A stretch of 64,000 bases of DNA. Origin: Escherichia coli. GTDB lineage: Bacteria; Pseudomonadota; Gammaproteobacteria; Enterobacterales; Enterobacteriaceae. The stretch lies in assembly GCF_003991155.1 (NCBI RefSeq), contig NZ_CP031293.1, one strand, 5' to 3'. Of this stretch, positions 31,217 to 31,248 are shown in pieces (the stretch's first letter is position 1; each line of letters begins with the position of its first letter). The position numbers and the translations under genes were made by a program. The notes beneath the pieces are model-generated. The model saw only the letters and a list, made by a program, of their open reading frames with translations. It made no database searches and was not told the origin of the DNA.

Positions 31217-31248
31217 GAAAATGGCGCTTTAAGAAGCGCCATTTTTTT
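31217..31248. terminator. bidirectional intrinsic terminator between convergent fdnI and higA-like gene
   Basis: Hairpin AATGGCGCTT-TAAGA-AGCGCCATT followed by TTTTTTT on the plus strand and preceded by AAAA. Confidence 0.6.

Follow-up and report, generated by a model that had tools for sequence, protein, structure and literature searches.

Gene arrangement and hairpin at the fdnI-yddM junction

The window analysed here is a 64,000-nucleotide stretch of the Escherichia coli chromosome. Its region 30500-32100 is 100% identical to E. coli strain 2016C-3878 and, used as a query, was matched in 5,413 of 5,426 complete genomes. Gene calls in this region agree between the RefSeq annotation of the identical strain, the list of open reading frames and Pfam. 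On the plus strand, fdnI encodes a cytochrome b561-type subunit (PF01292) and ends with a TAA stop codon at 31194-31196. On the minus strand, yddM is preceded in the same operon by a higB-like toxin gene, and the higB/yddM transcript is the one that arrives at the junction from the right (Table 1). The yddM stop codon, TAA on the minus strand (31249-31247), lies 1 nt, a single A, from the stem of the hairpin described below. The two genes are convergent and separated by exactly 50 bp, as the original prediction had it; the gene identities that it proposed, fdnI and an antitoxin gene, are likewise confirmed by the PF01292 match and by the HigA-type HTH protein encoded by yddM with a HigB gene upstream.

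Table 1. Coordinates of the features discussed (window positions, except for the polymorphic fdnI-yddM gaps, which are given in the compared loci)
Feature	Position	Strand	Basis
fdnI, formate dehydrogenase-N gamma subunit, last gene of fdnGHI	30543..31196	+	RefSeq annotation (identical strain), Pfam PF01292 E 4.6e-23
C-rich, G-poor minus-strand RNA, candidate Rho loading site, antisense to the fdnI 3' end	31139..31216	-	composition
Spacer from fdnI stop codon to hairpin, 21 nt	31197..31217	+	read from sequence
Hairpin 5' arm AAAATGGCGCTT	31218..31229	both	sequence, folding, stem simulation
Hairpin loop TAAG (CUUA on the minus strand), 4 nt	31230..31233	both	sequence, folding
Hairpin 3' arm AAGCGCCATTTT	31234..31245	both	sequence, folding, stem simulation
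T-run of 7, U-tract of the fdnGHI terminator (very likely)	31242..31248	+	sequence, tail score, K-12 3' end at homologous tract
yddM, higA-type antitoxin / HTH regulator	31247..31531	-	annotation, ORF list, Pfam HTH_3
higB-like RelE/ParE toxin gene, same operon, upstream of yddM	31531..31809	-	annotation, Pfam PF05015 E 1.4e-17
adhP	31995-33035	-	annotation
Polymorphic fdnI-yddM gaps	L002 (K-12) 1214-1598; L003, L006, L008 about 915-1125; L011		

Between the two genes, positions 31217-31248 read G AAAATGGCGCTT TAAG AAGCGCCATTTT TTT and form a perfect 12-bp stem (31218-31229 / 31234-31245), to which an optional G-U pair between 31217 and 31246 may be added. The originally predicted arms AATGGCGCTT and AAGCGCCATT are found at 31220-31229 and 31234-31243; the hairpin is real and correctly placed, but its stem is two A-T pairs longer than had been stated. 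The plus-strand RNA folds at -17.3 kcal/mol and the minus-strand RNA at -16.2 kcal/mol, with z-scores of -4.3 and -5.2 against shuffled sequences, significant in both cases. The original description also had a run of A on one side of the hairpin and a run of T on the other, and both are present. They are unequal: the A-run at 31218-21 consists of four A and is the source of a UUUU tail on the minus strand, while the T-run at 31242-31248 consists of seven T, the first four of which can pair with the A-run and the last two of which lie within the yddM stop codon. With seven T against only four A, the two flanks of the hairpin are not equivalent.

Perfect stems of at least 12 bp with loops of 3-8 nt occur four times in the 64-kb window, against 0.03 expected from Markov-1 simulations, and a chance palindrome was rejected on this count. 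A REP element was also rejected: no REP consensus (of the GCCGGATG...CATCCGGC type, present in many copies per genome) is found in the hairpin, and its core GGCGC-N8-GCGCC occurs only once in the window. The other three perfect 12-bp hairpins lie at 34936-34963, 49777-49804 and 63343-63373, the first of which corresponds to the K-12 3' end 1555766(-) downstream of sra (Adams et al., PMC7815308).

The higB-like gene is intact in the window. It is frameshifted in E. coli strain S5 (L007) and absent from K-12, where yddM is an orphan antitoxin or regulator, and the 30500-32100 query, in which it lies, is covered to 80% or more in only 1,312 of the 5,413 matched genomes. Upstream of higB, a perfect inverted repeat GGAACA-N10-TGTTCC at 31834-31855, present once in the window (0.01 expected), has a near-identical copy kept upstream of yddM in K-12 and is probably the HigA/YddM operator; with the probable operator located there, a HigA operator at the hairpin was rejected. 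In the Term-seq data of Adams et al. (PMC7815308), a strong minus-strand 3' end maps to K-12 1552652, 31 nt inside yddM (...CCCCGCCCGGGGGACAUUAUUCA). The sequence CCCCGCCCGGGGGACAUUAUUCA is also found in the window, at about 31478-31510 (-), just past the higB stop codon and the higA start, and the fold around it is no better than that of shuffled sequences (z -0.1). If present in this strain, such a 3' end would correspond to toxin-only transcripts or to the end of the adhP 3' UTR.

Termination of fdnGHI transcripts

Intrinsic terminators were defined by a stem of about 5-14 bp, a loop of 3-8 nt and a U-tract of about 7-9 nt. Read on the fdnI strand, the hairpin falls within these limits for the stem, with a G-C-rich 12-bp stem and a 4-nt loop starting 21 nt past the stop codon. 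The plus-strand tail UUUUUUUAUUG has a T-tract score of 5.23 when counted from the first U, a value reached by no random position in the window. An RNA polymerase coming from fdnI would transcribe the stem with its G-C-rich core, the tetraloop and then seven U; its transcript would be expected to be released at about 31246-31250, where the yddM stop codon lies. Terminator prediction had been proposed as a check; a consensus scan did not list the hairpin. We consider this a limit of the scan and no evidence against the hairpin, since the A-U pairs are probably absorbed into the stem, leaving fewer than five T in the 8-nt tail box. A search of Rfam gave no family at threshold, and only sub-threshold matches to STnc320 and TarB overlap the hairpin; STnc320 is not located at the Salmonella fdnI locus, so that this match reflects a generic resemblance to terminators.

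In K-12, the gap between fdnI and yddM is 406 bp long and contains three copies of the hairpin with two REP/BIME units of about 178 bp between them. Among the K-12 termini in Supplementary Data 2 of the TRS re-analysis (PMC10687069) is one on the plus strand at 1552039-1552049, dominant at 1552043, with a signal of 0.99 and the label 'Primary fdnI'. Placed on the K-12 sequence, the 1552043(+) terminus lies at or just after the U-tract of the homologous hairpin copy A (1552013-1552040), and this mapped fdnI 3' end therefore belongs to the homologous K-12 hairpin and not to the window allele. Terminator function for fdnGHI can be taken as established in the K-12 homolog and is very likely here. 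The element is not new in kind, the homologous K-12 3' end being already tabulated in publications; a literature search for a described fdnGHI terminator turned up nothing specific. We conclude, with a probability of roughly 0.6, that the hairpin is an ordinary Rho-independent terminator of the fdnGHI operon with at most partial activity in the reverse direction.

Conservation of the hairpin downstream of fdnI

We fetched 80 fdnI loci from other Enterobacterales; 79 loci, with the window counted among them, could be evaluated. Hairpins were called by a G-C-closed core method, which replaced a first automatic caller that over-extended the stems and gave inconsistent tails. A G-C-closed hairpin of -7 kcal/mol or below was found within 110 nt of the fdnI stop codon in 77 of the 79 loci, and within 40 nt in 68. 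In 60 of these 68 loci, the fdnI strand has a higher T-tract score than its complement (Wilcoxon p 4e-10). Escherichia, Citrobacter, Salmonella and their relatives have a GGCG..CGCC core in common, in which 8 of 8 pairs are kept, 2 of them with compensatory changes (UA/AU and UA/GC/CG), while in Kosakonia, Enterobacter, Kluyvera and others the hairpin found at this place after fdnI is unrelated. As judged from these hairpins, structure is kept while sequence changes across orthologous loci, and the element is polarised toward fdnI.

Two further observations bear on the gene that the hairpin serves. Wherever an insertion (BIME, IS200, NUDIX or pyrophosphatase) separates fdnI from yddM, the hairpin remains with fdnI, and yddM is then followed by a REP, by a degenerate hairpin copy or by nothing. 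Moreover, the strength of the upstream A-tract, which would provide the U-tract for the opposite direction, showed no association with a convergent neighbour gene among these loci (p 0.63 overall, 0.14 within family). These two results together argue that selection maintains the element for fdnI, and its use by yddM looks incidental. The half of the original claim that concerns fdnI is accordingly well founded, on the stem and its seven U, on conservation, on covariation and on the K-12 3' end.

Reading of the hairpin from yddM

As the stem is a perfect palindrome with four A on its left, reading from the yddM side gives an equally stable hairpin. The tail that follows, UUUUCAGCUU (UUUUCAGCUUAAAG), is UUUU and then CAGCUU, that is, four proximal U succeeded by C, A, G and C, and it scored 3.25 compared to 5.23 for the plus strand. 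In addition, the yddM stop codon is so close to the stem that a terminating ribosome would, given the size of its footprint, cover the 5' arm. On these grounds the yddM-side hairpin with its UUUU/CAGCUU tail would most likely terminate only weakly and with leakage, and would also pause polymerase and protect the 3' end.

The original prediction went further and proposed a shared bidirectional terminator, which would end both the fdnI and the yddM transcripts efficiently and without any factor. The symmetry of the stem and its like stability on both strands agree with this proposal, as does the score of the minus-strand tail, which only 0.8% of random window positions match. There is also no room for another terminator in the 50-bp gap, and the hairpin adjoins the yddM stop codon in several species (the window, L020 and L041). 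Such an element would have precedents, since bidirectional terminators between convergent genes are reported to be common in E. coli (Ju et al. 2019, quoted in bioRxiv 10.1101/2022.10.23.513370); a count of 306 such sites has also been cited. The orthologous loci point the other way: they are polarised toward fdnI, their A-tract does not track convergent neighbours, and yddM is without a hairpin in L010 and others.

The operon fdnGHI is poorly expressed under aerobic conditions such as those of the Term-seq experiments of Adams et al. In these experiments (Adams et al. 2021, PMC7815308), no 3' end was reported in the K-12 gap, 15519xx-15524xx. TRS Supplementary Data 3 (PMC10687069; RNAtag-seq, Term-seq) gives K-12 minus-strand termini at 1552236 and 1552057, the former being classed as 'Distant primary' of yddM with a 3' UTR of 163 nt. 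Both are situated at the base of REP hairpins, at least 163 nt beyond the yddM stop codon, and the three K-12 hairpin copies are without any minus-strand 3' end in the TRS tables. The 3'-end mapping that had been suggested as a check thus yields, from published K-12 data, the expected plus-strand end at the homologous hairpin but no minus-strand end at any of its copies.

Termination further along the minus strand involves Rho in K-12. Adams et al. 2021 (PMC7815308) place Rho termination antisense to fdnI, in a region at 1551885(-), and an in vitro Rho termination region extends over 1551823/1551845-1552131(-) (bioRxiv 10.64898/2026.03.23.713779, supplement). At 1551885(-), coverage goes from 71 upstream to 10 downstream without BCM and from 89 to 116 when BCM is present (PMC7815308), and read-through of copy A is deduced only from such low-coverage 800-nt windows under BCM, a treatment that induces other antisense transcription too. 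In the window, the 78 nt of minus-strand RNA past the hairpin (31139-31216) contain 29% C and 10% G, which places them at the 99.7th percentile of the C/G ratio; this composition fits a candidate rut site, at a position matching the Rho-dependent regions of K-12. Polymerases reading through the hairpin would run antisense into fdnI on this untranslated, C-rich RNA and would then be stopped by Rho.

Some caution attaches to the K-12 alleles as proxies for the window. In K-12, the copy beside yddM forms an A-C mismatch on the minus strand, with a folding energy of -10.2 kcal/mol and the tail UUUAGAAC, and is weaker than the window hairpin; because of the mismatch, its read-through says little about the window. 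Copy A matches the window in its stem base and in its minus-strand tail. In E. coli alleles that carry BIMEs, yddM keeps a hairpin copy beside its stop codon, which could reflect selection for it. As the K-12 alleles differ from the window allele, partial reverse termination may take place in this strain. Four proximal U behind a very stable hairpin are unusual and count against weak reverse activity, and reverse termination might be substantial, as some terminators with an imperfect U-tract do work.

Efficient termination of the antitoxin transcript is nonetheless unsupported, in view of the tail of only four U, the stop codon 1 nt from the stem, the lack of a reported minus-strand end at the K-12 hairpins and the Rho-dependent termination beyond them. 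We therefore regard a fully bidirectional intrinsic terminator as unlikely. The idea of a shared bidirectional terminator holds in part, since the palindromic stem and the short A-run confer some potential in the reverse direction. Most likely, the hairpin acts on yddM transcripts by partial termination together with pausing and 3'-end protection, with Rho as a backstop. We infer the efficiency of each direction in this strain, as well as the Rho backstop for this allele, from the data presented above.

Anaerobic growth with nitrate is the only condition that induces fdnGHI, and autorepression is typical of operons of the higBA type; heavy traffic from both sides of the hairpin is thus unlikely. 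This weighs against a collision-type mechanism, in which the hairpin would pause both polymerases and head-on or rear-end collisions would bring about termination, as proposed for ynaJ-uspE. The convergent pair with one hairpin in a short gap is the very architecture considered in bioRxiv 10.1101/2022.10.23.513370, and where a stable hairpin is followed by a weak U-tract on one strand, pausing of the polymerase would be favoured over its release. Yet the element on the fdnI strand is a canonical intrinsic terminator for which collision is unneeded, and in K-12 the fdnI 3' end has a signal of 0.99, compared to only about 0.5 for the yddM termini in the datasets that report them. We consider this mechanism very improbable. 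Hardly any weight can be given to the idea that the hairpin is no terminator at all but a palindrome arisen by chance, an operator bound by a protein, or a target or remnant of mobile elements (BIME/IS200): the site is indeed polymorphic, with BIME units carrying hairpin copies, IS200 and whole genes inserted after the T-run, but varied hairpins occupy the same position after fdnI in many genera and a 3' end has been mapped at the K-12 homolog.

Comparison with known systems

The closest relative of the window hairpin is the K-12 fdnGHI terminator, copy A, with which it shares the stem base AAAATGGCGC/GCGCCATTTT, a U-tract that follows directly and a distance of 21 nt from the fdnI stop codon. 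It differs by its T-run of 7 (4 in K-12) and by its loop-proximal sequence. The window also lacks the REP/BIME units found behind the hairpin in K-12, so that the hairpin directly abuts the yddM stop codon.

The class defined by SEnd-seq (Ju et al. 2019, as cited in bioRxiv 10.1101/2022.10.23.513370), together with ynaJ-uspE, resembles the window in having one palindromic hairpin in a short convergent gap, flanked by an A-tract as well as a T-tract; if the fdnI and yddM transcripts end where predicted, their 3' ends would overlap by about 30 nt. Compared to this class as it is cited there, the window combines a strong canonical terminator in one direction with a poor U-tract in the other, and at its K-12 homologs the mapped ends are on the plus strand only, with Rho dependence beyond. 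Like the REP/BIME elements that stabilise or terminate transcripts in 3' UTRs, the hairpin is an extragenic palindrome between convergent genes. There is, however, no REP in the window gap, whereas the REPs of the K-12 gap carry minus-strand 3' ends.

In this strain, the hairpin would thus mark the 3' boundary of the fdnGHI operon, which has little import beyond annotation. The analysis further suggests that transcription of higBA/yddM may continue antisense into fdnI before Rho ends it. It also calls for caution in naming palindromic terminators: symmetry alone is insufficient to call one in a short convergent gap bidirectional, because, as the present case shows, strand-specific 3'-end data, the U-tracts of the two strands and the distances to the two stop codons need not agree.

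Insertions at the T-run/yddM stop junction

The fdnI-yddM gap is polymorphic. Some genomes have the bare hairpin, as in the window; others have one REP/BIME unit of about 178 bp or two, with a further 27-28 bp copy of the hairpin bounding each unit, hence three copies in K-12. The bare-hairpin allele was found in 23 of the 60 records of an evenly spaced sample, which would put it at roughly 38% of complete E. coli genomes. Other insertions occur at the same place. In E. coli 22AR0747 (L005, about 957-1650), an IS200 (Y1_Tnp, PF01797) directly follows the T-run and precedes the yddM stop codon. An Escherichia sp. (L010, 3214-3702) has a NUDIX hydrolase gene at the junction after the T-run, co-directional with fdnI; its yddM, without a hairpin, is separated by about 8 nt from the converging NUDIX stop codon. 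In Citrobacter (L016, 3283-3882; also L019, L022, L023, L025 and L027), an inorganic pyrophosphatase-like gene lies at the junction, again co-directional with fdnI.

It is rather unlikely that the junction between the T-run and the yddM stop codon is a hot spot of structure-directed integration. The duplication of the hairpin on either side of the BIME units could be the footprint of insertion beside terminators by REP/BIME elements or by a Y1 transposase that recognises hairpins. What looks like recurrent insertion at this junction, with duplication of the hairpin around the BIME, is an only mildly interesting by-product of the analysis.
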